A stretch of 64,000 bases of DNA from assembly GCA_016704485.1 (NCBI GenBank), contig JADJAA010000002.1:239591-303590 (forward strand). The letters run 5' to 3'. Of the stretch, positions 2,166 through 13,390 are shown piece by piece (positions within the stretch are counted from its first letter, which is position 1; each line of letters begins with the position of its first letter). The translations under genes and the position numbers were made by a program. The stretch is from Flavobacteriales bacterium (GTDB lineage Bacteria > Bacteroidota > Bacteroidia > Flavobacteriales_F > PHOS-HE28). The notes below the pieces were generated by a model. The model was not told where the DNA came from. It searched no databases and saw only the letters and a program-made list of their open reading frames with translations.

Positions 2166-2560
2166 GTGTTCTATCACTGTCGATGGTGCTGGAGTGACGC
2201 GAAGATGCGGAAAGGAGTTGTCCGTTCGTGCTGCTGTGAGGAAAAGAATTTCAGGGCCACTTTACAACTCAACAAAGTCTACTACGCTTTGGTGGGGACC
2301 GTGCGGTCAAGACCAAGAACGCAAGGTCCTGAAGCGGTACCCTTGCGGAGAGTTAGTACACATGCGTGACGACAGTAATAAGGAAGTATACGAACAGTGA
2401 GCTGCAAAGGTTATCGATCACCTGGGCCAAGCAGCCGGAAAATGTACCTCGCAAGCTCCAGCGGGATGCGTGCGATCCATGGCCCAACTAGTAGCCCATT
2501 GCCTACAAGTAAGTGGTATTTAACAATGCGAGAAACATTTTGTTAAAGGATCACGCCATT

Positions 2561-2982
2561 TTCTTCTTTGTCTTTTTCATTTTCTCCTTTGTACTTGCGG
2601 CAAGTTCCTTTGTCTTTTTCATTTTCTCCTTTGTACTTGCGGCAAGTTCCTTTGTCTTTTTCATTTTCTCCTTTGCACTTGCGGCAAGTTCCTTTGTCTT
2701 TTTCATTTTCTCCTTTGTACTTGCGGCAAGTTCCTTTGTCTTTTTCATTTTCTCCTTTGTACTTGCGGCAAGTTCCTTTGTCTTTTTCATTTTCTCCTTT
2801 GTACTTGCGGCAAGTTCCTTTGTCTTTTTCATTTTCTCCTTTGCACTTGCGGCAAGTTCCTTTGTCTTTTTCATTTTCTCCTTTGTACTTGCGGCAAGTT
2901 CCTTTGTCTTTTTCATTTTCTCCTTTGCACTTGCGGCAAGTTCCTTTGTCTTTTTCATTTTCTCCTTTGTCTTTTTCATTTT
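2561..2982. repeat. 42-bp tandem repeat, ~10 copies (internal 21-bp periodicity of TCCTTTGT)
   Basis: The unit ttctcctttgtacttgcggcaagttcctttgtctttttcatt repeats head-to-tail. The only variation is T/C at gtacttgcgg versus gcacttgcgg. The 42 bp = 14 codons, so every frame gives a 14-aa periodic ORF (e.g. MKKTKELAASTKEK on the minus strand). Confidence 0.95.
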
Positions 2983-3375
2983 GGCAAAGCACTTTTTGGT
3001 TTTGCCCTCGCAATTGGCGGTGCTCTGCCCTCAAACCGGCGTTCTTCGCTGCCAAATAGCGTCGGCACGCGCCGTTTCGACCGGATTACTTCGTTTGCAG
3101 TGGGATCTTCATTTAACAGCCCCTCCGCGCCGTAAAGGAGGCTCCCGATTTCGAATACTTCAAGTCGGGACGGTCGGAGCTCACGATGGATCTTTCGGCG
3201 GAGTGGTCGGCTGGATGGCCGGAGGTCGGAATGACGATCGTGCCAGCCCCAACAGGACTGTGTTCCCTCTTGATCTATACGAAGAATGGGCTCCGTTTGG
3301 TGCATTTTGCGAAGGTGTAATGGGGAATAGGGTGGTGTAAGTGACTATGGGTCAGGCTGCTAAATGTGGCCCTAT

Positions 3376-3704
3376 GTTGACCTCATGTTCATGAACGTTG
3401 CCTCCCATGTTCATGAAGGTTGCCCTCACTGTTCATGAAGGTTGCCCTCACTGTTCATGAAGGTTGCCTTCACTGTTCATGAAGGTTGCCCTCACTGTTC
3501 ATGAAGGTTGCCCTCACTGTTCATGAAGGTTGCCCTCACTGTTCATGAACGTTGCCCTCACTGTTCATGAAGGTTGCCTCCCATGTTCATGAACGTTGCC
3601 CCTCATGTTCATGAAGGTTGCCTCCCATGTTCATGAACATTGCCCCTCATGTTCATGAAGGTTGCCTCCCATGTTCATGAACATTGCCCCTTAGGTTCAT
3701 GAAC
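3376..3704. repeat. 22-bp tandem repeat array A (~15 units, consensus GTTGCCCTCACTGTTCATGAAG)
   Basis: Direct head-to-tail 22-bp units. Variants ctccca/ccctca/ccttca and gaag/gaac alternate in places as a 44-bp higher-order repeat. 22 is not a multiple of 3, so the array is non-coding. Confidence 0.95.
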
Positions 3705-3968
3705 ATTGCCCACCATGTCATACGACATTGCCCACCATGTCGACTGTAGTTGCCCACCATGTCGACTGACGTTGCCCACCATGTCGACTGACGTTGCCCA
3801 CCATGTCGACTGACATTGCCCACCATGTCGACTGACATTGCCCACCATGTCGACTGACATTGCCCACCATGTCGACAGACATTGCCCACCATGTCGACTG
3901 ACGTTGCCCACCATGTCGACTGACATTGCCCACCATGTCGACTGACATTGCCCACCATGTCGACTGAC
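3705..3968. repeat. 22-bp tandem repeat array B (~12 units, consensus (A/G)TTGCCCACCATGTCGACTGAC)
   Basis: Contiguous with array A. Units share the (G/A)TTGCCC head, but the tail changes to ACCATGTCGACTGAC. Transitional units are visible at 3683-3748. Confidence 0.95.
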
Positions 3969-4209
3969 ATTGCCCACCACTACGACTGTAGTTGCCCACC
4001 ACTACGACTGTAGTTGCCCACCACTACGAGCGTAGTTGCCCACCACTACGACTGTAGTTGCCCACCACTACGACCGTAGTTGCCCACCACTACGACTGTA
4101 GTTGCCCACCACTACGACTGTAGGTGCCCATCACTACGACTGTAGTTGCCCGACACTACGCTTGTAGTTGCCCACCTCGACGACTGTAGTTGTCCAGCAC
4201 TACGCCTGA
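3969..4209. repeat. 22-bp tandem repeat array C (~11 units, consensus GTTGCCCACCACTACGACTGTA, decaying toward 4209)
   Basis: Contiguous with array B. The last units become progressively degenerate: ggtgcccatcac, gttgcccgacac, gttgtccagcac. Confidence 0.9.
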
Positions 4210-4499
4210 CCTTGCGCACGAGCGGGCCGTAAATGCCCGATATGTCCATAAACCCCTCGTATTGACGGCGGCCTCCGGTGGGTAAGGTTTCTTGGCCTCT
4301 TGGTTGGCTTGGGTTTGGGCTTTTGGTCCCTAGTCCAGTGGCTTCTGGCGTTGGCTGGTATGGTTGCCATGCCACAGGCAGGCCATAGGTTGAGGTGGTT
4401 GGTGGGTAGGTTGGTATTGAAGGGGCTAGCATAAGCTTCTCTCCTCAAGCACAGGAGTACCTGCCGGCCCGTATGTACTGCTCTGTGCCGAGCACTGCC

Positions 4500-6124
4500 G
4501 ACCTTGATCACATTATGGGGAAGGGAATCCCGTGCGAGTTGGGTACACGGCCCGGGCCACATGGGTGATACTTCCAGAGTATTGGCTTGGCCCGGGTGGG
4601 TAGACAACGCAGGGTCCCGAAGCGGAGACTTATTCTATGTTAAAAACAAGCATAACGTAAAGTTTTTTTCAGGCATTAGGACTCCAGCCATGAACCAAGG
4701 ATGAGGCCCACCCTTGATCCATGTTGTTGGCCGTTGCCATCATGCCTATCCCTGTTAGGTTGCTCTTCAGCAGAGCCTGCTTCCGTTTGGACACGACATA
4801 CGAAGTACGGCAATCCGATCAATTCTGCACTAATTGCCGCTGCTCATAGGGCCGGTTGTTGCGGATCACGGCGCAAACACAATGGATGATCTTATTACGG
4901 ACCGCATTGACAACCAATATCGGCTTCTTGCCTTCAGATACTTTGCGTTGGAAGTAGACCTTTAATTCTCCTTCGCGTTGCACGTTGGCAAGTGCAGCCA
5001 TGTGGAGCATGGTCTTAAGGATCTTGTTGGCTTGATGTGATACTTGCGTTCGTCCGCGAATACTGCTACCAGAACTACGCTCAAATGGAGCTACACCAGC
5101 ATGACATGCCAGTTCGCGTGGGTTCGTAAATCGATGGAAGCCATCGGTGAGCGCGATCAAATAGCTCGCTAATTGTGGGCCTACGCCGGGGATCGTGAGC
5201 AACAGGTTGTATTGTTCACTGGTTATATCATCGGCTTTGATCTGTGCCATGATCAGTTGCTCTACGCGTATCACGGCACGATCAGAAGCAACGATCAAAC
5301 GCTTGTCAAGTTGGTCGAACGCCTTTTTAATGTCCTTGTCCATGTAGCGGTTCAGGTCCGAGAGATGCTTCTTGTACATGGCTCTGACGCGAACCAAGTG
5401 TTGCCTACGTGTGAGCAGGTGCTTGAGTTTATCGAGCTTGAGGTTCTGTGCTGTGAACAAACGTGTTTTCTCTCGAAATGTGCGTGCGTATTGCGCGATC
5501 CGCAAAGCGTCCACTTTGTCGTTCTTCACACGCTTGATGCCCATGCTCTTTTGTATATCGAGCGGGTGCGCCAACCAAGCATGCCAGTGCTGCTCCACGA
5601 TCAGATTAAGCAACATCAACGTATAGTGCCCGGTAGGTTCCAAACACACTAGGCATTCCCCGGTGTCAACTCCGTATCGTTTCTTCCAGCTGTTCATTAG
5701 CGTCATTACGGCTGTACGACCATTGCTTACTTGCAAGCTCTCCAAGTGAACACCGTGTTCATCGAGCAATGCGAAATCCAAGGTTGCACTGCTCACATCG
5801 ATACCGATCCAATGCTTCATTTTCGTTTACTTTGAGGTTCAACAAATGATCGCTGTTGAGGCTGAGCGACAGGTCCGATGCTCCATGACTCTAATAGGCC
5901 CTTACGCCTAGCATTCTATCCGAGCCTTAGACCTGAGAAAGCCAGAGGTACCCATAAGTCTCTTAGGGGCTTTAACCCTAGCTGCGGAGTTGGTTCACCC
6001 CTGGCTTGGCTCAGTTCTCTTCAGTGATCTATCGACATCTAAGAAAATAGTTCCTTAGTGACGATGCAATACTAGAGCCTGCATAGGGTTAGTGGTCAAG
6101 TGGGCGTGAAGGCTCCGCGGCATC
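4500..6124 (-). mobile_element. IS110-family insertion sequence, approximate extent including non-coding flanks
   Basis: The transposase is flanked by about 300 bp of structured, GC-rich non-coding DNA on each side. The family has no terminal inverted repeats, so exact ends cannot be set by eye. Confidence 0.35.
4819..5820 (-). CDS. IS110-family transposase (DEDD N-terminal domain + IS116/IS110/IS902 C-terminal domain)
   Basis: 333-aa ORF with ATG start. N-terminus WIGIDVSSATLDFAL and C-terminal LLTIPGVGPQLASYLIALTDGFHRFTNPRELACHAGVAPFERSSGSS are both hallmark IS110-family transposase motifs. Confidence 0.85.
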   Translation of the reverse strand: MKHWIGIDVSSATLDFALLDEHGVHLESLQVSNGRTAVMTLMNSWKKRYGVDTGECLVCLEPTGHYTLMLLNLIVEQHWHAWLAHPLDIQKSMGIKRVKNDKVDALRIAQYARTFREKTRLFTAQNLKLDKLKHLLTRRQHLVRVRAMYKKHLSDLNRYMDKDIKKAFDQLDKRLIVASDRAVIRVEQLIMAQIKADDITSEQYNLLLTIPGVGPQLASYLIALTDGFHRFTNPRELACHAGVAPFERSSGSSIRGRTQVSHQANKILKTMLHMAALANVQREGELKVYFQRKVSEGKKPILVVNAVRNKIIHCVCAVIRNNRPYEQRQLVQN

Positions 6125-7399
6125 TTAATACGTTTGACCATCCGCCTTCAGAACCACAATACTTTCCCTTAGTGCTGGAACTTCCGTCGAATGTGCTTCA
6201 TGATTCCAATGTTGGCCTGAGCTACGTAAACGGCGAATGACCTGTACTTCCTGCGTAAGCCAACCTACCTTTTCAGCGATGTCCGCGAGGATAAAATCCA
6301 CGGGGATTACCACTCCGGCATATGCGGAGGTGCCAACGGCAATTTTTAGGACCGCATCTGGTTTTGCTCTGTTCCGAAGGTTCTTCAATAGTCCGGCCAT
6401 GTCTTCAAAGTAGGCTTGAATCATATTGGGGATGTTCGGATTCCAAAGTTGCTCCTTGCGCACAACTAACTCTTTGTATGCTTTTGCATAGTTGATACCG
6501 AAGTCGTCATTAAATGGCTTCGCCCAGGCTGCTTGCACATGCGACCGGACCGTTTGGAGCCGAATATTCATCAAGTCTGCGTTAGTGCGAACAAAACCGC
6601 CCAAGAAAAGCTCCGGCCTATAGACATCTGTGTAGTCGAAGGAGTTCAAGTAAGGCGGTGATGTGACACAGAGGTCGAACTTTCGTATATCCCTGTGTGT
6701 ACTGAGCCGCCGCGCATCCATGCGCTCAACACTGGACTTGGAACCAGATATTGGGGCTGCTACTACGTCCTCCTTCATCATAGCAATGTATGCCTCGTAT
6801 GCGCTGAGAAAAGAGGACGCATTGAATGACCGATAGTTGTCCATGCGCTTGTACCGGAGGCATTTGCCATCAGGATACGCATTACAATTATCCATGGCTG
6901 CCTTCATAAGCGCCAAACGGCTTAACGATCGCTCAGGACGTGCGAAACGTTTGGTGGAATCCCAGCCTCCCATGAAGGATCGAAGTACGGACCTGTTGAA
7001 TAGCCATTTACTCTTGCCTCCAGCTTGTGAGAAGGTGGAATAGGACTCAAGCGAAGTCTTCAGAGGCTGTCGAATGCCCTTGACCGTCCACTCAAACGCG
7101 TTTGAAAGGATACGGGGCGTTGATTGTTCAAGTTTGGCCTGACCAACAAAAGCGAGGAACGGATTTACTTCAAAGGCAAGGCACTCAACTCCACTTAAAG
7201 CATATTGCAGAGGACTAGTGCCGGAACCGCTGAAAGGCTCTATGGCGAAAATCCCATTCCGTGGTGTGTGATCGACCTCTGAAAGTGCGTCCGTAATTAG
7301 AGAAGCACTGAAGCCCTCCTTAATTGGGTACCATCGATGACGAGGCAACACCATGTTATCTACGGCATTGGTAATTGAGCGAACTGCATGTTTTGGCAT
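6125..7399 (-). CDS. DNA amino-methyltransferase (N6-adenine or N4-cytosine; SPPY motif IV), fourth gene of coupled operon
   Basis: 424 aa. Motif I IFAIEPFSGSGTSPL, acidic beta-2 end CLAFEVNP, motif IV LCVTSPPYLNSFDY. The ATG at 7397-7399 lies 2 bp after the upstream gene's stop at 7402-7404. Confidence 0.7.
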   Translation of the reverse strand: MPKHAVRSITNAVDNMVLPRHRWYPIKEGFSASLITDALSEVDHTPRNGIFAIEPFSGSGTSPLQYALSGVECLAFEVNPFLAFVGQAKLEQSTPRILSNAFEWTVKGIRQPLKTSLESYSTFSQAGGKSKWLFNRSVLRSFMGGWDSTKRFARPERSLSRLALMKAAMDNCNAYPDGKCLRYKRMDNYRSFNASSFLSAYEAYIAMMKEDVVAAPISGSKSSVERMDARRLSTHRDIRKFDLCVTSPPYLNSFDYTDVYRPELFLGGFVRTNADLMNIRLQTVRSHVQAAWAKPFNDDFGINYAKAYKELVVRKEQLWNPNIPNMIQAYFEDMAGLLKNLRNRAKPDAVLKIAVGTSAYAGVVIPVDFILADIAEKVGWLTQEVQVIRRLRSSGQHWNHEAHSTEVPALRESIVVLKADGQTY

Positions 7400-7401
7400 A
7401 C

Positions 7402-8466
7402 TTAGGCTTCTAAGAAAAGGCGGATTGGTTTTTCAAAGTCACTTCTTGTGGAATGGTAATCTGGGTTATAGGTGATTTCGCGTGTCGCAAAATGACATTG
7501 CTGTTTAGCTGTTAGTGATTTGGTGCTCGCCTTTACTCCATGGCGGCGACAGTCAAAAACAACGAGATAACCCAACGTGTCCGAAGCAGGACTATTTCGC
7601 TTGTGATTGTCAAGGTAATTCGCAAGTTGCTCTGCACCTTTATTTGCACGTGATTCGCCATAGTTGGCAGTGAATCTTGCACCATCACCACTACGGGATT
7701 TACCAATCCACTTAATTTCAATAAGTGCCTCTCTCGTAGACATCTGGGCTGTTAACTTGATGTCAATCGGATGGCTTTCATCGATATTTTGTTCGGGGCG
7801 AACCCAATAGTCATCAAAGCGCATACAACAGCGCAGGTAATGGCTAAGAGAGGTACGTAGCCGGTGTTCTGGTCCTGGCCCGAACCAGAAGCGTCTATCT
7901 GGATCTTGCCAAGCTTCCCGCAAAGTTGGGCATGTAGAGTGGCGAGCTAGGCTATGCCCGTAATCCAGCAGGGCTTCGCGCAGGTCATCAAAATGATGAA
8001 GCAGGAACTGACTTGGTGCCCCAGGTAGGAATTTGTCAACAGTCAGGCATTGTTCGCCAATCCGAAACTCCTCGACCTCTTGAACTAAACTGTAAACAAT
8101 AGCGTCGGTCTGGTTTTGAAGGGGTGAGTTTACATTCCCTTTCCAAAGAAATGCAGTTCCGTCTGGTCTTATCTCAATTGCTGCCAAATCGAGTACGCCG
8201 TTGATGGTTTTACCATTGAGAATTCGTTCGGCTTGGACAAGGCGCTTCTCATCAAGTTCCGAATGAATTCCTATTGGGGCAAAGACAGTGAGTTGCGTTT
8301 TTCGATTAACACGGCAGAACTGGCCTTGAATGCGAAGAAAGTTCAAGAGCTGTTTAAGCCGTGTGACACCCTCTTCACCAAACACCTCTTGAGCCTTTAT
8401 TAATGGCTGATTCGCCAATGCGCGATGCATGACGTCTGTATCAATTTTCCTAGTTGCTATGCTCAT
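7402..8466 (-). CDS. Hypothetical protein with PD-(D/E)xK-like nuclease motif (candidate restriction/effector nuclease), third gene of operon
   Basis: 354 aa. HPIDIKLTAQMSTREALIEIKWIGK gives D then E-x-K with 15-residue spacing, characteristic of the restriction-endonuclease fold. Its start overlaps the upstream gene's end by 17 bp. Confidence 0.5.
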   Translation of the reverse strand: MSIATRKIDTDVMHRALANQPLIKAQEVFGEEGVTRLKQLLNFLRIQGQFCRVNRKTQLTVFAPIGIHSELDEKRLVQAERILNGKTINGVLDLAAIEIRPDGTAFLWKGNVNSPLQNQTDAIVYSLVQEVEEFRIGEQCLTVDKFLPGAPSQFLLHHFDDLREALLDYGHSLARHSTCPTLREAWQDPDRRFWFGPGPEHRLRTSLSHYLRCCMRFDDYWVRPEQNIDESHPIDIKLTAQMSTREALIEIKWIGKSRSGDGARFTANYGESRANKGAEQLANYLDNHKRNSPASDTLGYLVVFDCRRHGVKASTKSLTAKQQCHFATREITYNPDYHSTRSDFEKPIRLFLEA

Positions 8467-9049
8467 GTGTTCGGCCTATGGTAAGCAAGTATTCAAGCCA
8501 AGCGGAGAGTGGGAGGGAAAGGTCACTACCTTGATAGGGTAGCAGTTCCCTGATTTCCCCAAATGTATCATGGAGTCTATCTACGATTGGATCACTGAAC
8601 AACCAAGCTGTTTGGGCGTGTCGCTTAATAAATGCAAGTGCGGGCTCGTAAGCAAAAGCTTCACGGATGACACTCGGTGTGAACAAGAGCAAGCAATCCG
8701 CTGCTCCGTTGAGGTAGGCTAACCTTTCTTGATTGATAGTGTGTTCCTTCCAAATACCTAGGTTGGTTTGTCCATCAGAAGTAATCTGTAGTAATTCTCC
8801 ATGATCCGTGATGTCACCTATACGTATACAGTAATCCAGTGCATCATCAAGGTTTTTCGAGAACGGCAAGCCTGATGGAGTGGAGCTAAATTCATATTCC
8901 CAATCTGAAACTGGTTTGCCTCCGTACAATGACAGCAGGCAGCTTGCGTAGGCAAGTAGGTGTAACTCTGATCTTGAGAAGCCCCTAACCGTTTGTGTCA
9001 GTCGTGAACCCAGTAGGAGCGAGTCAAAGTATGCTTGCGGACTGGTCAT
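8450..9049 (-). CDS. Hypothetical 199-aa protein (candidate 'middle component'), second gene of operon
   Basis: The ATG at 9047-9049 overlaps the ATPase stop at 9046-9048 (ATGA). No recognisable catalytic motifs. Predicted soluble. Confidence 0.6.
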   Translation of the reverse strand: MTSPQAYFDSLLLGSRLTQTVRGFSRSELHLLAYASCLLSLYGGKPVSDWEYEFSSTPSGLPFSKNLDDALDYCIRIGDITDHGELLQITSDGQTNLGIWKEHTINQERLAYLNGAADCLLLFTPSVIREAFAYEPALAFIKRHAQTAWLFSDPIVDRLHDTFGEIRELLPYQGSDLSLPLSAWLEYLLTIGRTHEHSN

Positions 9050-10989
9050 ATATTTCTGGAGTGTGCGAGTGCATCCAGCGCATTCAAGCGATTCTCAAAT
9101 TCTGCTTCATGCTTCTCTTGCACTTCAGACAGTTCGCGCCACTTATACAGGCGATGGAGTCCAAACCCGAGACTCGATTGCTTCGCAATCTCGGTGAGAA
9201 GTTCAGAAGTGTTGATGTTGGCTGTCATGAAGACAGGGTGTCCGTCATTGGCGAATTCAGCCACCATTTGTCCGGCTTGTGACTCATAAGCTAGATCAAG
9301 ACTGCCTTCTGGTGTATCTATGTAAAGGGGAGCTTTGATGGTATCTGATGAAACGTAGTTAGCTAGCGCCATTCTTAGTGCAATGTCGATGAAGAAGCGC
9401 TGACTTTCGGAGAGGTCATGCTCCGCATGTCGCTGTGTCTTCTTCACTGTTAGCGCCAGAGTAACACTCTTATCGCGCGTTTCGAGTTGGATATCTAAGT
9501 CGACACCCAGAAAGAGATTGGCTAAAGTGTTAAACTTAGGAACAAAGTCTTCCTGAATATTCAGGTATTCTTGCTCTAGCTTTTTTTGTATTTGCTTGTA
9601 AGCTTTAGAAGCTTCGGCACTTTTACTCTTCTGCTTCAAACGCTCCTTATCGATTTCGGCAATAGTTTTCTCATATGCTGCAATGACTTGATCATGATTA
9701 GCGTCCACCGGTCTGCCTCGGTTAACAACATCTCGATTTTGCTCTTCAAAGGCGTCAAGCTCTGTTTGCACAGTTTCAAGTGAACGTACGCGTATGTCAT
9801 TTTCGACATCAAGCTGAGTGATAAGGAGCACACTGGAATCGACACGCTTTTTCTGTTCGGCCAGTTCCTTATCAAGCTCTTTAAGGCGCTGGTGCACAGC
9901 TGCCGGAATGGTAGCCCGGTCAGTTGCAGCTTTGCACAGTGGACAAGTATGCTCCGCAATAGCCTTTTTTACAGGCTCTACAACTGCGATGCCCTCAGTA
10001 CCGCAAATAGCACATTTGTGCTCAATTAGTGCGAGCTGGATTGCGGGTGCGTTCTCTACTGAGTGCTTTGCCGTCACGCGTTCGCTGAACTCGCGTTGGT
10101 AGTCGTTTCGAATGACGGAAGCTCGTGCAGCGCCTTCAGCAAGCGCGAGTTTGGCATCGCGCAATTTGGTTTGAATTATATCGACCTCATTTGATCGTTC
10201 TTTCACTCGGTCAAGGAGTGTCTCAAATTCTTCATATGTGCTTGCCTCATCGTCTACAAGTTCATTCCCGCTGAGTACCTGTCTGAGGCTGTCAAGCCGA
10301 TCTTTTTGCTGTGTCATGTTCCAGCGCAGATTTCGAACCCTTGAATCCGCCTTTTCCATTTCACGTCTCAGTCTTTCCGCATCTGCCCGCTGTTCATTAT
10401 CAATTCCTACAAACAGAAGCAAGCAGGTTTCTAGAACTTTCGGATCCCAAAACAATAAATGACGTCGTTCATCAAAAGTGAGCACGAATGATTGGATGAA
10501 GACAAACTCCTTGAACGTTGAGAGTCCGATGTGCTGAGTTAATACGGCCTGATAATTTGCCTCCCGGTCTTCGGGTGTCATCTCATCAAAGTGCCTGGCA
10601 TCGTTTGTAATGACAAGTGACCGCAGCGCATCAGGTTCATCGAATCCTCGAATTAGCGTAATTGTTCGATCTCCGATTGTGAGTTCAAGTTCGATTTCTG
10701 CAATGTCACGGTCCTCAGGCTGTACACGCCCTTGAAAGTAGTCCTTGGAGAATCTTGAAATATCTCGGTAGTAATCATCAACGGATACGAACTTTTGTCC
10801 TGGGCGTGGAACAACTCCTGTTAGGCCGTAATTGATGATTTGGAAAAATGTAGATTTCCCAAGACCATTGGCCCCTGCAAGGCATGTCGTTCCAGGTTGG
10901 ATTGAAAATTCAATGTGGTCCTGAAGATTGTACAGCGAGAAGTGTGACAGTCGGATCCGGCGCACAATAGGGAAGTTAAGATGCCTCAT
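9046..10989 (-). CDS. Rad50/SMC-like ABC ATPase with coiled-coil insert and CxxC..CxxC zinc-hook-like site, first gene of operon
   Basis: 647 aa. N-terminal Walker A CLAGANGLGKSTF. A ~270-aa helical, charged central region contains KCAICGTEG and HTCPLCK. C-terminal signature-like LSESQRFFIDIALRMAL, Walker B/D-loop PLYIDTPEGSLD, and H-loop candidate NDGHPVF. Confidence 0.8.
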   Translation of the reverse strand: MRHLNFPIVRRIRLSHFSLYNLQDHIEFSIQPGTTCLAGANGLGKSTFFQIINYGLTGVVPRPGQKFVSVDDYYRDISRFSKDYFQGRVQPEDRDIAEIELELTIGDRTITLIRGFDEPDALRSLVITNDARHFDEMTPEDREANYQAVLTQHIGLSTFKEFVFIQSFVLTFDERRHLLFWDPKVLETCLLLFVGIDNEQRADAERLRREMEKADSRVRNLRWNMTQQKDRLDSLRQVLSGNELVDDEASTYEEFETLLDRVKERSNEVDIIQTKLRDAKLALAEGAARASVIRNDYQREFSERVTAKHSVENAPAIQLALIEHKCAICGTEGIAVVEPVKKAIAEHTCPLCKAATDRATIPAAVHQRLKELDKELAEQKKRVDSSVLLITQLDVENDIRVRSLETVQTELDAFEEQNRDVVNRGRPVDANHDQVIAAYEKTIAEIDKERLKQKSKSAEASKAYKQIQKKLEQEYLNIQEDFVPKFNTLANLFLGVDLDIQLETRDKSVTLALTVKKTQRHAEHDLSESQRFFIDIALRMALANYVSSDTIKAPLYIDTPEGSLDLAYESQAGQMVAEFANDGHPVFMTANINTSELLTEIAKQSSLGFGLHRLYKWRELSEVQEKHEAEFENRLNALDALAHSRNI

Positions 10990-11196
10990 GCTTGGTGATT
11001 AGATTGATATTAACCTACTCAATCCTTAGTGTCGATTTGGAATTTGAATAACGCGCGTTCCTTAGCGTTAGGGATTGAGGCGGAAAGCCAGTAGGCGAGG
11101 AGGAACGACGAGTGTAGTTTTGCAGTGGAAAGAGTGCCTCAGAATGAATTTGAGCATGTACCCGCCCAAAGAAACAACAATCCTCACGTTCGCCAT

Positions 11197-11288
11197 CATT
11201 TCTGATCCAACTTCCTAACCATCGTCAAAATAGTAGCAATGGCAATCGTCTCCCCAGTTTCATCCACAACATCAACAAGGAACTTCAC
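11197..11288 (-). pseudogene. Diverged duplicate of the paaZ 3' end (30 codons + stop)
   Basis: Minus-strand translation VKFLVDVVDETGETIAIATILTMVRKLDQK* matches the true C-terminus of the adjacent gene, ...VKFLVDVVDETGETVAIATILTMVRKLDQE*. Many synonymous nucleotide differences. It is in a different frame from the intact gene. Confidence 0.6.
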
Positions 11289-11323
11289 CCCGGGTCGAGG
11301 CCCGGGGCAGGCTCTTAAATGAA

Positions 11324-13390
11324 TCATTCTTGGTCGAGCTTTCTTACCATGGTCAGGATGGTTGCTATTGCGACAGTTTCTCCTGTTTCGTCTACGACGT
11401 CGACCAAGAATTTGACGATTCCTGATGCCACATCCGCACCCTTCGGAGAATCTTCCGTTAGCACTTTCTTCTCCTGATCCACTTTCTCCTTTACGGTGAA
11501 CTTAACCTGGATCGTGGAGCCCGGATAAACAGGTTTTGTAAAGCGCGCTTCTTCGATGCCGTAGTTGAGTAGTACAGGTCCTTTAGGTGGGTCTACGAAG
11601 AGACCCGCTGCTCGCGATAGGATAAAGTAACCGTGTGCCACGCGACCGGTGAAGACAGTTCCGTCGAGGGCGTTCTCGTCCATGTGGGCGTAGAACTTGT
11701 CGCCGCTGAGGTCTGCGAAGTTGTTGATGTCATCCAACGTTACCAAGTGCTTGTCGGTGATCACAGTGTCGCCGATGTTCAGCTCTTCGAAATGCATGCG
11801 GAAGGTGTGCTTCGGCGTGATGTTCTGTTTCGCACCTTGCTGGTACTGTTGTGTCAACGCAGTGATCGTTGTCGGTGATCCTTGGATGGCGGTGCGTTGC
11901 AGGTAGTGCAATACACCACGCTTGCCGCCCATCTCTTCACCACCACCTGCACGTCCGGGGCCGCCGTGTACCAATGTTGCGAGCGGTGATCCGTGTCCGG
12001 TGTTCTCCTTGGCCATGTCGCGGTTGATCACCAGCATACGTCCGTGGTGACTTGCTGCACCCCACACGAATTGCTGTGCTGCTTTATCGTCGTACGTCGC
12101 AATACTCGCGCAGAGACTGCCTTTGCCGAGTTTGGTAAGTGCTACCGCTTCTTCGATATCGGTGTAGGGCATCAATGTGCTTACCGGTCCAAAGGCTTCG
12201 ATGTTGTGGCACTGTTGGTTCTTCCATGGATCTTTGTTCAGTAGTAGGATCGGACTCATGAATGCACCTTTCTCGGAATCGGCACCGGTCACGTCCACGC
12301 TGTTGGGGTCGCCGTACACCAGCTCGCTGCCTTTCATTAATTCGGCGAGGTTATCGCGCACTTCGTTGCGTTGTGTTTGTCCGGCAAGAGCTCCCATGCG
12401 CACACCTTCTGCGCGCGGATCACCGATCACTGTTCCGCCCAAGCGTTTGCCCAATGCGATCTGCACATCCTCTACCAAGTTCTCTGGAACCATAATGCGT
12501 CGCGCACCGGTGCAGCGTTGGCCGCACTTCAACGTCATTTCCTTTCCCACTTCTTTAATGAAGAGCGAGAACTCTTCGGTATCCGGTGTGGCATCAGGGC
12601 CAAGCACAATGCTGTTCAAGCTATCGGCCTCCATGTTGAAGGGCACACTTTCGGCAATGATCTGCTTGTGCGCTTTCAGCATGCGTCCGGTGGTTGCACT
12701 TCCGGTGAAGGTCACCACATCTTGGCTCTCCACATGATCCAAAAGATCACCGGCGCTGCCTACGATCAATTGGATGGCGCCTTCAGGTAAGATGCCTGAG
12801 GCGACTATCGCCTTCACCATCGCTTCCGTCAAATAACTGGTAACGGTAGCGGGTTTCACCACCGCTGGCATTCCAGCCATCCAGTTCACGGCGCATTTTT
12901 CCAGCATCCCCCAGATCGGGAAATTGAACGCATTGATGTGTACTGCAACACCTTCCTTCGGCACCATGATGTGGTGGCCCATGAAGCTGCCGCCTTTGCT
13001 CGTGAGTACAGGAGGTCCATCCACATAGAACGGCATATTGCCGAGCTGTTTGCGCAAGCTCGCATTGGCAAAAACGTTTCCGATCCCGCCTTCAATATCC
13101 ACCCAACTATCAGCCTTGGTCGCACCGGTGCGGTAACTGATCTGGTAGAACTCCTCCTTGCGATCCATCAAATACATGGCGAGTGCTTTCAGCATTCTGC
13201 CGCGTTCCGGGAAGGTCATTTTGCGCAGCGTTGGTCCACCGGTTTCGCGTGCGTAGTTCAGCATCGCGCCAAAATCCAGACCACCGCTACTGGTTGTTGC
13301 GATGAGTTCGCCGGTGCTGGCGTCCGTGAGTTCGGTTTGTTTTCCGGATCCTTTCACCCAGGTTCCAGCGATATAATTTTCGAGTTGCAT
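11324..13390 (-). CDS. paaZ: PaaZ-like bifunctional aldehyde dehydrogenase / MaoC-type enoyl-CoA hydratase
   Basis: 688 aa. N-terminal ALDH features (FTGSATTG, catalytic CGQRCTGARR) and a C-terminal hot-dog MaoC-like domain. Length matches PaaZ. Confidence 0.75.
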   Translation of the reverse strand: MQLENYIAGTWVKGSGKQTELTDASTGELIATTSSGGLDFGAMLNYARETGGPTLRKMTFPERGRMLKALAMYLMDRKEEFYQISYRTGATKADSWVDIEGGIGNVFANASLRKQLGNMPFYVDGPPVLTSKGGSFMGHHIMVPKEGVAVHINAFNFPIWGMLEKCAVNWMAGMPAVVKPATVTSYLTEAMVKAIVASGILPEGAIQLIVGSAGDLLDHVESQDVVTFTGSATTGRMLKAHKQIIAESVPFNMEADSLNSIVLGPDATPDTEEFSLFIKEVGKEMTLKCGQRCTGARRIMVPENLVEDVQIALGKRLGGTVIGDPRAEGVRMGALAGQTQRNEVRDNLAELMKGSELVYGDPNSVDVTGADSEKGAFMSPILLLNKDPWKNQQCHNIEAFGPVSTLMPYTDIEEAVALTKLGKGSLCASIATYDDKAAQQFVWGAASHHGRMLVINRDMAKENTGHGSPLATLVHGGPGRAGGGEEMGGKRGVLHYLQRTAIQGSPTTITALTQQYQQGAKQNITPKHTFRMHFEELNIGDTVITDKHLVTLDDINNFADLSGDKFYAHMDENALDGTVFTGRVAHGYFILSRAAGLFVDPPKGPVLLNYGIEEARFTKPVYPGSTIQVKFTVKEKVDQEKKVLTEDSPKGADVASGIVKFLVDVVDETGETVAIATILTMVRKLDQE

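Follow-up and report, generated by a model that had tools for sequence, protein, structure and literature searches.

The question raised by this locus is whether four genes packed on the minus strand at 6125-10989 of the DNA analysed (a stretch of 64,000 nucleotides, hereafter the window) work as one system and, if so, of what kind. All four products are hypothetical proteins in the NCBI annotation. A preliminary description had seen in them a candidate undescribed defence system, either a hybrid in which an SMC-like ATPase is wired to a methylation-controlled nuclease or two stacked systems. The genes are termed A to D, in their order along the minus strand, and the features considered are as follows.

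11196-11290, minus strand: diverged duplicate of the 3′-terminal 30 codons of the neighbouring paaZ-like gene (local alignment and translation)
10990-11195, minus strand: non-coding leader of A, presumed operon promoter region (sequence)
9046-10989, minus strand: gene A, SMC/Rad50-like ABC ATPase, LmuB-like, 647 aa (ORF and profile matches)
10849-10875, minus strand: Walker A of A, GANGLGKST; G39/G42/G44/K45 kept in 91-92 of 94 sequences (translation)
9934-10014, minus strand: four-cysteine, zinc-hook-like motif of A, CAIC-x19-CPLC, at the apex of the coiled coil (translation)
9295-9414, minus strand: signature LSESQR (9397-9414) and deviant Walker B/D-loop LYIDTPEGSLD (9295-9327) of A (translation)
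8450-9049, minus strand: gene B, middle protein of 199 aa, with a winged helix (N-terminal) and a helical bundle (C-terminal)
7402-8466, minus strand: gene C, 354 aa, two domains (ORF)
7711-7794, minus strand: catalytic core of C, E225...P233-x-D235...E250-x-K252, EQNIDESHPIDIK...EALIEIK (translation; invariant in 94/94)
6125-7399, minus strand: gene D, SAM-dependent DNA methyltransferase, 424 aa (PADLOC MTase_II PDLC03224, E=9e-42, full length)
7217-7234, minus strand: motif I of D, FSGSGT, predicted SAM binding (translation, conservation)
6650-6664, minus strand: motif IV of D, TSPPY, predicted catalytic (translation, conservation)

The ORF listing showed the four genes to overlap or abut, and the junctions of the preliminary description could be read on the sequence as it had given them: an ATGA common to A and B (9046-9049), a 17-nt overlap between B and C (ATG of C at 8466, TAG of B at 8450-8452), and a 2-nt gap between C and D (TAA-GT-ATG). 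The same tight junctions were seen in independent gene calls on homologous contigs. The overlaps imply co-translation, and since each gene has many homologues, with functional residues invariant in 94/94 sequences, A to D are real genes rather than chance ORFs. A weak sigma-70-like match lies within the leader of A (11035-11007), and a scan for promoters found sites no more numerous than in shuffled sequence; the leader may hold the operon promoter. The duplicate upstream of the leader encodes the same peptide as the 3′-end of the paaZ-like gene, with differences mostly at third codon positions, and no third copy occurs within the window; it is probably a scar at the edge of an acquired segment. 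An IS110 transposase (4819-5820; PF01548 and PF02371) adjoins the cassette and tandem arrays occupy ∼2480-4260, both as previously described. The G+C content of the cassette is 0.474, versus 0.501 for the whole window. The genomic island in which these elements had been placed is only moderately supported.

Gene A specifies a protein in which a coiled coil of ∼280 residues separates the N- and C-terminal halves of the head. The PADLOC LmuB model PDLC03859 matched residues 13-564 of the window protein (E=3.5e-23, 81 bits) and 38/38 members of the A family over nearly their full length (best E 9.5e-31); given these modest scores (81 bits for the window copy), A is best regarded as a distant relative of LmuB. 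Searched against the PDB, the family profile found the heads of SMC3, Smc and Rad50. The DndD and PbeC models matched 16-18 of the 38 A proteins, much more weakly than LmuB. Walker A, Q166, SESQ, D558/E561 and D565 are invariant or nearly so (88-94 of 94), S527-Q530, D558, E561 and D565 being kept in 93-94 of 94. The motifs already reported for this protein are thus present in its translation and strongly conserved, the two CxxC occurring together at fixed spacing in 73/94 sequences and both being missing in 21/94; the histidine assigned to an H-loop is not conserved, however, and the conserved residues there are T589 and N591. Variation of this kind has been reported for LmuB proteins, which may have 0, 1 or 2 CxxC motifs (PMC12663957), and solved LmuB proteins have a 'naturally deviant Walker B' (10.1101/2025.06.23.660979).

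The small protein B had been described as lacking any recognisable motif. At the level of sequence families this held: no significant Pfam match was obtained with 46 B proteins, and neither Pfam, PADLOC 2.0 nor NCBIfam 20 gave a significant match to the window copy. The Pfam copy used presumably included the middle-component models MC1-8. A winged-helix fold can nevertheless be recognised. B shares with LmuC its small size and its place between ATPase and effector, but does not resemble solved LmuC (9ny5_C; Foldseek E 1.2, TM 0.23).

In protein C, a variable alpha/beta domain of ∼160 residues is followed by ∼165 residues with the PD-(D/E)xK nuclease, or restriction-endonuclease, fold. The D..ExK motif noticed earlier lies within this fold, and its catalytic residues are invariant (94/94), as are E200, D305, R307 and R308; Q280 is kept in 93/94. 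No significant match to C was obtained in Pfam, PADLOC 2.0 or NCBIfam 20. It had no match among the REBASE-derived REase models in PADLOC, and the PADLOC LmuA models were matched by only 2/31 members, at E 1e-4.

Protein D carries motif I near its N-terminus and motif IV ∼190 residues later, an alpha-like order. Its family profile found N4/N6 DNA methyltransferases in the PDB (TTHA0409, 5e-12; DpnA, N4C MTase, MboIIA, CcrM, PvuII), and both motifs named in the preliminary description were borne out by conservation, F56/G58 and S247-P-P-Y250 being invariant in 94/94 sequences and G60 kept in 92/94. The D proteins form four subfamilies with mutual identities of 22-28%. A, B and C are equally similar between the D subfamily groups as within them, which indicates exchange or rapid divergence of a methylase that is nevertheless never given up. 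A large hypervariable block for target recognition is lacking in D, and A, B and C yielded no element that would read sequence.

Conservation of this kind shows purifying selection on the folds and catalytic motifs, and the linkage of A-B-C to a methyltransferase proved near-obligatory and tolerant of rearrangement. The A-B-C-D set stays together in at least 133 species genomes and on 341 metagenome contigs, spanning >10 phyla, with a patchy distribution (0.07% of species genomes, across many phyla). Linkage was counted over 98 non-redundant loci, anchored on C, that had enough flanking DNA. A methyltransferase is nearby in 96/98, so that the four-gene linkage looked for among homologues is strongly conserved. 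All four genes run on one strand in 78/98 loci; a D-family gene is relocated (upstream, divergent or convergent) in 11/98; three loci are partly degraded with D retained; one (L090) was mis-scored because C is frameshifted, D being present; and in another (L111) D lies 3.7 kb off. In two further loci (L119, L125), and in a redundant pair outside the 98 (L136/L129), an unrelated PF01555 methylase is convergent on C. The linkage persists down to ∼30% identity, through rearrangements and methylase replacement. Loci lacking a methylase tend toward damage: A is truncated in L064 and L003/L056, and an IS/Tn directly follows C in L004. In L114, A-B-C are intact and no methylase is found in the 2.7 kb of downstream sequence. 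A, B and C co-evolve (distance correlations 0.83-0.89). With A-head distance controlled, the best partial correlation with D was that of the C nuclease domain (0.38), against 0.02 for the N-terminal domain of C, a weak signal. No fifth gene is conserved in the neighbourhoods of the cassette homologues. Most neighbours are ordinary housekeeping genes and the defence-island context is weak in most genomes; one copy is embedded in a type I R-M locus, and single copies adjoin KwaB and an OLD-like ATPase, a TIR protein, or TrwB/TrwC. Associations with IS110, a Tn7-like element and conjugation genes were observed, and a search of plasmid and phage collections found no member of the family.

The closest parallel among known systems is found in A. 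Lamassu (LmuA-LmuC-LmuB; DdmABC/ABC-3C) is likewise a three-protein module, with a Rad50/SbcC-like ATPase of ∼600-650 aa, a small middle protein and a nuclease-type effector, and LmuB and A have in common a coiled coil, optional CxxC zinc hook(s) and a deviant Walker B, A having 0 or 2 CxxC. The gene order, however, which had been thought to mirror ABC-3C, is the reverse of lmuA-(lmuC)-lmuB, the ATPase coming first, and the domain order of the effector is also opposite: LmuA has an N-terminal effector domain and a C-terminal docking domain, whereas the nuclease of C is C-terminal. Neither B nor C has detectable homology to LmuC or LmuA (Pfam, PADLOC models). Only A thus matches a known family, which rules out A-B as a complete known system. 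Lamassu also lacks a modification gene, none being reported for any clade in the Lamassu classification and structure literature searched, whereas a methyltransferase is almost obligatory in the cassette. In Lamassu, the nuclease is sequestered on the LmuB dimer with LmuC; in the solved complexes LmuB/LmuC touch DNA at its backbone and ends irrespective of sequence. The systems examined to date respond to DNA ends or structures, the effector is released and forms tetramers, and the outcome is abortive infection, with no methylation.

Classical R-M systems, like the cassette, couple a PD-(D/E)xK nuclease genetically to an SAM-dependent N4/N6 DNA methyltransferase, and D has the SAM-binding and SPPY motifs of a type II enzyme. 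The cassette also resembles them in being a mobile module of patchy distribution whose methylase may occupy either strand or be exchanged without loss of the pairing. In type II systems, methylation of the recognition site blocks cleavage by an endonuclease that stands alone with no ATPase, whereas C has the fold but always occurs with A and B in the loci surveyed. No R-M ATPase, whether a McrB-type GTPase or an SF2 helicase motor (types I, III and ISP), is known to be SMC/Rad50-like. MADS, a methylation-based defence in which mad3 is required for defence and dispensable for methylation, resembles the cassette in its ATPase, the mad3 HMM matching 38/38 A proteins (best 1.8e-16), although this model, derived from HHpred/PDB alignments, may describe SMC heads in general. 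MADS comprises eight genes (mad1-8) with a kinase, a subunit for specificity and a type I-like N6 methylase, as opposed to four; only the mad3 model matches, on A, and D matches type II methylase models only, not mad2. MANTIS (Gao_RL) and BREX-related systems also have four genes (ATPase, small protein, methyltransferase, nuclease effector) and mark self by methylation, the AAA+ ATPase and a small co-regulator of MANTIS being needed for methylation. Every family differs, however: an ORC/Cdc6-type AAA+ DUF499 ATPase, DUF3870, an N6 methylase and an HKD/PLD nuclease-SF2 helicase fusion. None of A-D matched DUF499, DUF3870, PLD-helicase or PglZ/BrxC in Pfam or PADLOC, and B, C and D matched none of the Dnd/Ssp/Pbe partners in PADLOC. 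The composition of the cassette also differs from that of Wadjet (JetC SMC, JetA kleisin, JetB KITE, JetD Toprim nuclease). No system of this composition is described in the literature searched.

These results suggest that the cassette is an undescribed restriction-modification-like immune system, its undescribed status being supported within the profile libraries and literature searched. We put at about an even chance the reading that the four genes form one defence system with restriction-modification logic, in which an ATP-dependent, Lamassu-like nuclease complex is prevented by methylation from damaging its own cell. By analogy with LmuB2-LmuC-LmuA, an A dimer would assemble into a complex with the winged-helix B and the nuclease C, which probably docks through its variable N-terminal domain. 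This complex would restrain the PD-(D/E)xK nuclease and, in an ATP-dependent manner, free or activate it on DNA. D would mark the host chromosome, probably with N4-methylcytosine in view of the invariant SPPY (N6-adenine also being possible); marked DNA would not be a substrate, and unmethylated incoming phage or plasmid DNA would be cut. We infer complex formation, ATP dependence, a methylation-reading component, sequence specificity and a defence phenotype; the defence role in particular would follow by analogy and from genomic context. As no homology of B and C to the LmuC and LmuA families is detectable, the Lamassu-type architecture is extrapolated from A alone, and the nearest relatives, which sense DNA ends or structures, are abortive and use no methylation, act otherwise than is proposed for the cassette.

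The same kinship of A with LmuB, whose solved complexes contact DNA without sequence specificity, would also fit a Lamassu-type structure sensor with a safety catch. The trigger of A2-B-C would then be a DNA end, palindrome or replication intermediate instead of an unmethylated site, and the methylase would only shield the chromosome from the released nuclease, turning a suicidal (abortive) response into a self-sparing one. A and B show no obvious domain for reading sequence, and the co-variation of the C nuclease domain with D fits methylation sensitivity in the effector alone. The absence of a methylase from every Lamassu known in the literature searched and the lack of homology of B and C to LmuC/LmuA speak against such a sensor, which we judge unlikely; its mechanism and that of the restriction-modification reading are not separable by sequence. 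The ATPase might instead serve modification too, A and B loading or activating D on DNA and C being the sole restriction component. MANTIS/BREX, in which an ATPase loads the methylase, offer a precedent, as do Dnd/Ssp, where the SMC-like ATPase DndD sits within the modification complex; the DndD and PbeC matches of A point the same way, despite being much weaker than those of LmuB, and D remains one broad family in most lineages even if relocated, as expected of a protein docking on partners. In three lineages, however, D has given way to the unrelated PF01555 methylase, which is shorter and lies on the opposite strand; a specific A/B-D interface is difficult to square with such a replacement, and a role of A in modification therefore seems quite improbable.

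Many type II R-M systems are addiction modules, and a selfish or housekeeping module, acting in mobile addiction (post-segregational killing), DNA repair or epigenetic control, would suit the heterogeneous, largely housekeeping neighbourhoods, the patchy distribution, the associations with mobile elements and conjugation genes, and the action of SMC/Rad50 relatives in repair. Such a role is nonetheless very improbable, given that some copies lie in clear defence contexts, that the plasmid and phage collections yielded no member, and that addiction and defence are compatible in R-M-type systems. The chance stacking of a Lamassu-like A-B(-C) beside an ordinary or orphan methyltransferase or a type II R-M pair is scarcely credible: D does resemble REBASE-type type II methylases over its full length, and the fold of C, taken by itself, resembles that of a type II restriction enzyme, but the 96/98 linkage holds to ∼30% identity, across phyla, rearrangements and methylase replacement, and the gene overlaps imply co-translation. 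Neither C with D alone nor A-B without C was found among 98 C-anchored and 6 B-anchored loci. As A, B and C never occur apart, the stacked reading of the preliminary description was rejected; its other reading, the wired hybrid, is supported.

With restriction-modification logic as the preferred reading, the cassette may tentatively be placed, at somewhat short of an even chance, in a new class of R-M-type immunity in which an SMC/Rad50-like (Lamassu-related) ATPase-adaptor-nuclease complex acts as the 'restriction enzyme' and is gated by DNA methylation. If this is true, the cassette would be related to the abortive Lamassu systems but spare its own cell, and would provide the first SMC-family DNA sensor that tells self from non-self by an epigenetic mark.

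The ORF listing of the window contained, exactly where the preliminary description had placed them, four minus-strand genes, here termed A to D, which form a 4.9-kb cassette with clear catalytic residues:

9046-10989, minus strand: A, an SMC/Rad50-like (LmuB-like) ABC ATPase, 647 aa
8450-9049, minus strand: B, a winged-helix protein, 199 aa
7402-8466, minus strand: C, a PD-(D/E)xK nuclease, 354 aa
6125-7399, minus strand: D, a DNA methyltransferase, 424 aa

When the junctions were read on the sequence, the tight packing claimed earlier was found (an ATGA overlap between A and B, a 17-nt overlap between B and C and a 2-nt gap between C and D), and all the motifs quoted in that description translated as claimed. 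The histidine assigned to the H-loop of A was without conservation, the invariant residues at that place being T589 and N591. The GC content of the cassette was 0.474 versus 0.501 for the whole window, and a scan for operon promoters and terminators rendered no more sites than were present in shuffled sequence.

A word-index search returned only 31 relatives of C. Pattern-based scans found a relative encoded in 133 species-representative genomes and 341 metagenome contigs, and an exhaustive HMMER search rendered 677 clusters at 50% identity, the best 150 of which were, some fragments excepted, ∼350 aa long. The hosts belong to Bacteroidota, Acidobacteriota, Verrucomicrobiota, Planctomycetota, Myxococcota, Actinomycetota, Pseudomonadota, Chloroflexota and several further phyla. 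They include cultured strains of Chitinophaga, Hylemonella, Methylophilus, Streptomyces, Kribbella and Winogradskyella, which makes the system experimentally accessible. The plasmid and phage collections searched contained no homologue of C.

To survey linkage, 160 loci were fetched, and the ORFs called in them were scanned with HMMs for A to D that had been built iteratively. This left 146 non-redundant C loci, 98 of which had room for the whole set. The order A-B-C-D on one strand was seen in 78 of these 98; D lay downstream and convergent in five, upstream on the same strand in three and upstream and divergent in another three, while three loci were partly degraded but kept D. The remaining six were scored as lacking D. 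In one of them (L090), however, D was present behind a frameshifted C, in another (L111) it lay at a distance of 3.7 kb, and in two (L119 and L125) a different methylase, of the PF01555 (N6_N4_Mtase) type, converged on C. The same replacement was found in a redundant pair of loci not among the 98 (L136/L129). The replacement genes, all on the strand opposite to C, were as follows:

L119:4433-5194, minus strand: PF01555-type methylase
L125:4302-5282, minus strand: PF01555-type methylase
L136:8752-9480, minus strand: PF01555-type methylase

They are shorter than D, overlap or abut the end of C, and match only the first half of the PF01555 profile, which may mean that these ORFs are wrongly delimited or atypical. 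Of the last two loci scored as lacking D, one (L064) bears a truncated A, and in the other (L114) no methylase was found within 2.7 kb downstream. Since four of the six have a methylase after all, a methyltransferase is adjacent to or near A-B-C in 96 of the 98 loci. All six B-anchored contexts examined gave the same picture, and the conserved four-gene linkage on which the earlier proposal depended is upheld. The gene calls of the source databases showed overlaps of 4-8 nt at homologous loci, as in the window. The A-B-C-methylase linkage is robust, phylogenetically broad and unannotated.

Pairwise distances among A, B and C were strongly correlated (r = 0.83-0.89), whereas their correlation with D was 0.52-0.56 overall, rising to 0.69-0.76 inside the main D subfamily. 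One large and three small D subfamilies were distinguished, the small ones coinciding with the relocated D positions. Identity between D subfamilies was 22-28%; that of A, B and C was 30-36% between the corresponding groups, on a par with the 34-38% within the main group. Together with the PF01555 replacements, this divergence indicates that the methylase was exchanged, or diverged rapidly, several times while the need for one persisted, which is the strongest argument for functional dependence. When the distance between A heads was controlled for, the nuclease domain of C tracked D best (partial r 0.38, a weak and statistically non-independent value, versus 0.02 for the N-domain of C). This is a hint that methylation sensitivity might reside in the nuclease domain, with the N-domain serving as a docking module.

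Almost the entire length of protein A matched the PADLOC LmuB model PDLC03859 (E 3.5e-23), and all 38 family members tested matched it as well (best E 9.5e-31); the mad3, PbeC and DndD models also matched members of the family, although more weakly. Against PDB sequences, the A family profile retrieved the heads of SMC3, Smc and Rad50, and no chain named LmuB was among the top 60 matches. In an alignment of 94 family members, the Walker A, the Q-loop, the SESQ signature, a deviant Walker B (D558-T-P-E561) and the D-loop were conserved in all or nearly all sequences (88-94 of 94). Solved LmuB proteins are likewise reported to have a naturally deviant Walker B (10.1101/2025.06.23.660979). The apex of the coiled coil (positions 9934-10014) bears a CxxC-x19-CxxC motif, the two halves of which are either both present at a fixed spacing of 23 residues (73/94) or both absent (21/94); LmuB proteins reportedly contain zero, one or two CxxC motifs (PMC12663957). 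This all-or-none pattern suggests an intramolecular four-cysteine zinc knuckle that would have been lost by entire lineages.

Neither the B nor the C profile gave anything significant against PDB sequences. D was matched from end to end by a type II methyltransferase model (E 9e-42), and its family profile retrieved N4/N6 DNA methyltransferases from the PDB. Motif I (FxGxG) lies ∼190 residues ahead of motif IV (SPPY), an order that we take to be alpha-like among the methyltransferase permutation classes, and both motifs are essentially invariant across the 94 sequences, divergent subfamilies included (Ala replaces G60 in two). N4-cytosine methyltransferases most often have the SPPY form, which favours that target, although sequence alone is insufficient to decide the base. 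A hypervariable target-recognition region in D and a specificity element in C were sought, and no clear block was seen. B, C and D are without a model in NCBIfam release 20. All four proteins, even the obvious DNA methylase, carry the label hypothetical in the NCBI records consulted, which come from Flavobacteriales bacterium MAGs; this amounts to an annotation gap.

In the window, the IS110 element and repeat arrays said to adjoin the cassette were both located: an IS110-family transposase gene (PF01548 and PF02371) lies downstream at 4819-5820 and, beyond it, two tandem arrays with 42-nt and 22-nt units occupy about 2480-4260. The first (2482-3054) contains ∼10 copies that are 98% identical, and the second (3320-4263) ∼40 copies whose sequence drifts along the array; both give long spurious ORFs on either strand. 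On the other side of the cassette are:

11196-11290, minus strand: diverged 93-nt copy of the 30 codons that end the paaZ-like gene, located between this gene and A
11324-13390, upstream of A: paaZ-like gene (Aldedh and MaoC)

The copy begins 33 nt past the stop codon of the paaZ-like gene and encodes its final 30 residues a second time; most of the differences fall at third codon positions, and GC3 is lower in the copy. A GC-rich hairpin at about 11300 separates the two 3′-ends, and no third copy exists within the window. The copy suggests that the cassette segment was acquired at this site, and resembles a scar left at the paaZ 3′-end by acquisition or integration.

Elsewhere, the nearest neighbours in ∼75 genomes were heterogeneous, mostly housekeeping genes, with no fifth conserved gene among them. 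Enrichment in defence islands was not seen in a bulk scan of 139 nearest-neighbour ORFs, only a rough negative given the crude ORF picking. Individual loci are more suggestive of a defence or mobile context. In the closest homologue (L001/L005:2624-13887, a Flavobacteriales MAG; 61-76% identity to the window cassette), a type I hsdM shares 4 nt with the start of A, and an hsdR-like gene follows downstream. The interval between the cassette and the latter encodes a deoxynucleoside kinase, a UDG-family protein, a nucleoside deoxyribosyltransferase and a thymidylate kinase. This cassette seems to lie inside a type I R-M locus, along with a nucleotide-metabolism cluster. Other cassettes adjoin KwaB and an OLD-like ATPase (L169), a TIR protein (L064), TrwB/TrwC (L168) or a Tn7-like element (L004). 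The sole archaeal copy, in the MAG of an uncultured archaeon (L003/L056:6797-9589), is degraded: A is reduced to a fragment of 284 aa, C is intact, and D is truncated, with IS fragments after it. ParE/HigB-type toxin-antitoxin genes surround this copy.

Three independent loci bear a sister triad beside the cassette, composed of an LmuB-like ATPase that shares 22-25% identity with A, a ∼240-aa protein and a ∼370-410-aa protein with the same nuclease motifs:

L004:34-3879, plus strand: sister triad
L167:10860-14617, minus strand: sister triad
L041:10384-13402, minus strand: sister triad

In L041 the sister triad occupies the canonical place upstream of the sole methylase and the orthodox A-B-C converges on that methylase from the opposite side, giving two nuclease modules and one methylase.

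Among known systems, Lamassu (LmuA-LmuC-LmuB) is the nearest relative, via A and via the general plan of an ATPase, a small middle protein and a nuclease effector. However, the known LmuC and LmuA families show no detectable homology to B and C, the domain order of the effector and the gene order are reversed relative to C and to A-B-C, and only the cassette includes a methyltransferase; the Lamassu classification, structure and review literature examined makes no mention of methylation. The nuclease-methylase logic is shared with classical R-M systems, which are not known to contain an SMC-like ATPase. MADS and MANTIS (Gao_RL) are also methylation-based multi-gene systems with ATPases, though of different protein families. 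In MADS, mad3 is needed for defence but not for methylation, which gives a functional precedent. Identity with MADS was rejected because nothing besides A, through the mad3 model, matches it, and identity with MANTIS/Gao_RL or BREX because each component belongs to another family. The ABC ATPase classification of Krishnan et al., from 2020, is said to have defined ABC-3C. No description of such a methylase-linked set was found in literature searches on Lamassu, ABC-3C and SMC-like or Rad50-like systems, although a prior computational mention is possible. Every part has precedents, the wiring alone appearing to be new, and we therefore do not regard the cassette as categorically new.

The best-supported reading, to which we give about an even chance, is that the cassette is a putative R-M-like defence system, in which an ATP-dependent, Lamassu-related A2-B-C complex built on the SMC-like ATPase would form the restriction arm, and methylase D would provide self-protection. 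A close rival, to which we assign a distinctly smaller probability, retains the structural sensing of Lamassu as the trigger, methylation merely shielding the chromosome from the released nuclease; the kinship of A with LmuB would fit it, and so would the covariation of the C nuclease domain with D, with methylation sensitivity residing in the effector alone. That the ATPase might instead assist methylation seems improbable. Slightly less probable still is a selfish or non-defence module, with the IS110, Tn7-like and TrwB/TrwC neighbours speaking for it and the KwaB, TIR and hsdM/hsdR neighbours against it. Chance stacking of systems, one of the two readings offered in the preliminary description, is contradicted by the conservation of the linkage, and we consider it very improbable.

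SMC-based defences, Lamassu among them, are thought to detect foreign DNA from its shape, ends or structure, after which Lamassu kills the cell; R-M systems detect that a chemical mark is missing, and the cell is spared. A conserved operon combining an LmuB-like ATPase module with a dedicated methyltransferase would bridge these two strategies. The linkage is relevant to the way in which SMC-type immune sensors avoid damage to self, and with the cassette it can be tested directly how an SMC-like machine could be made safe for its own chromosome.
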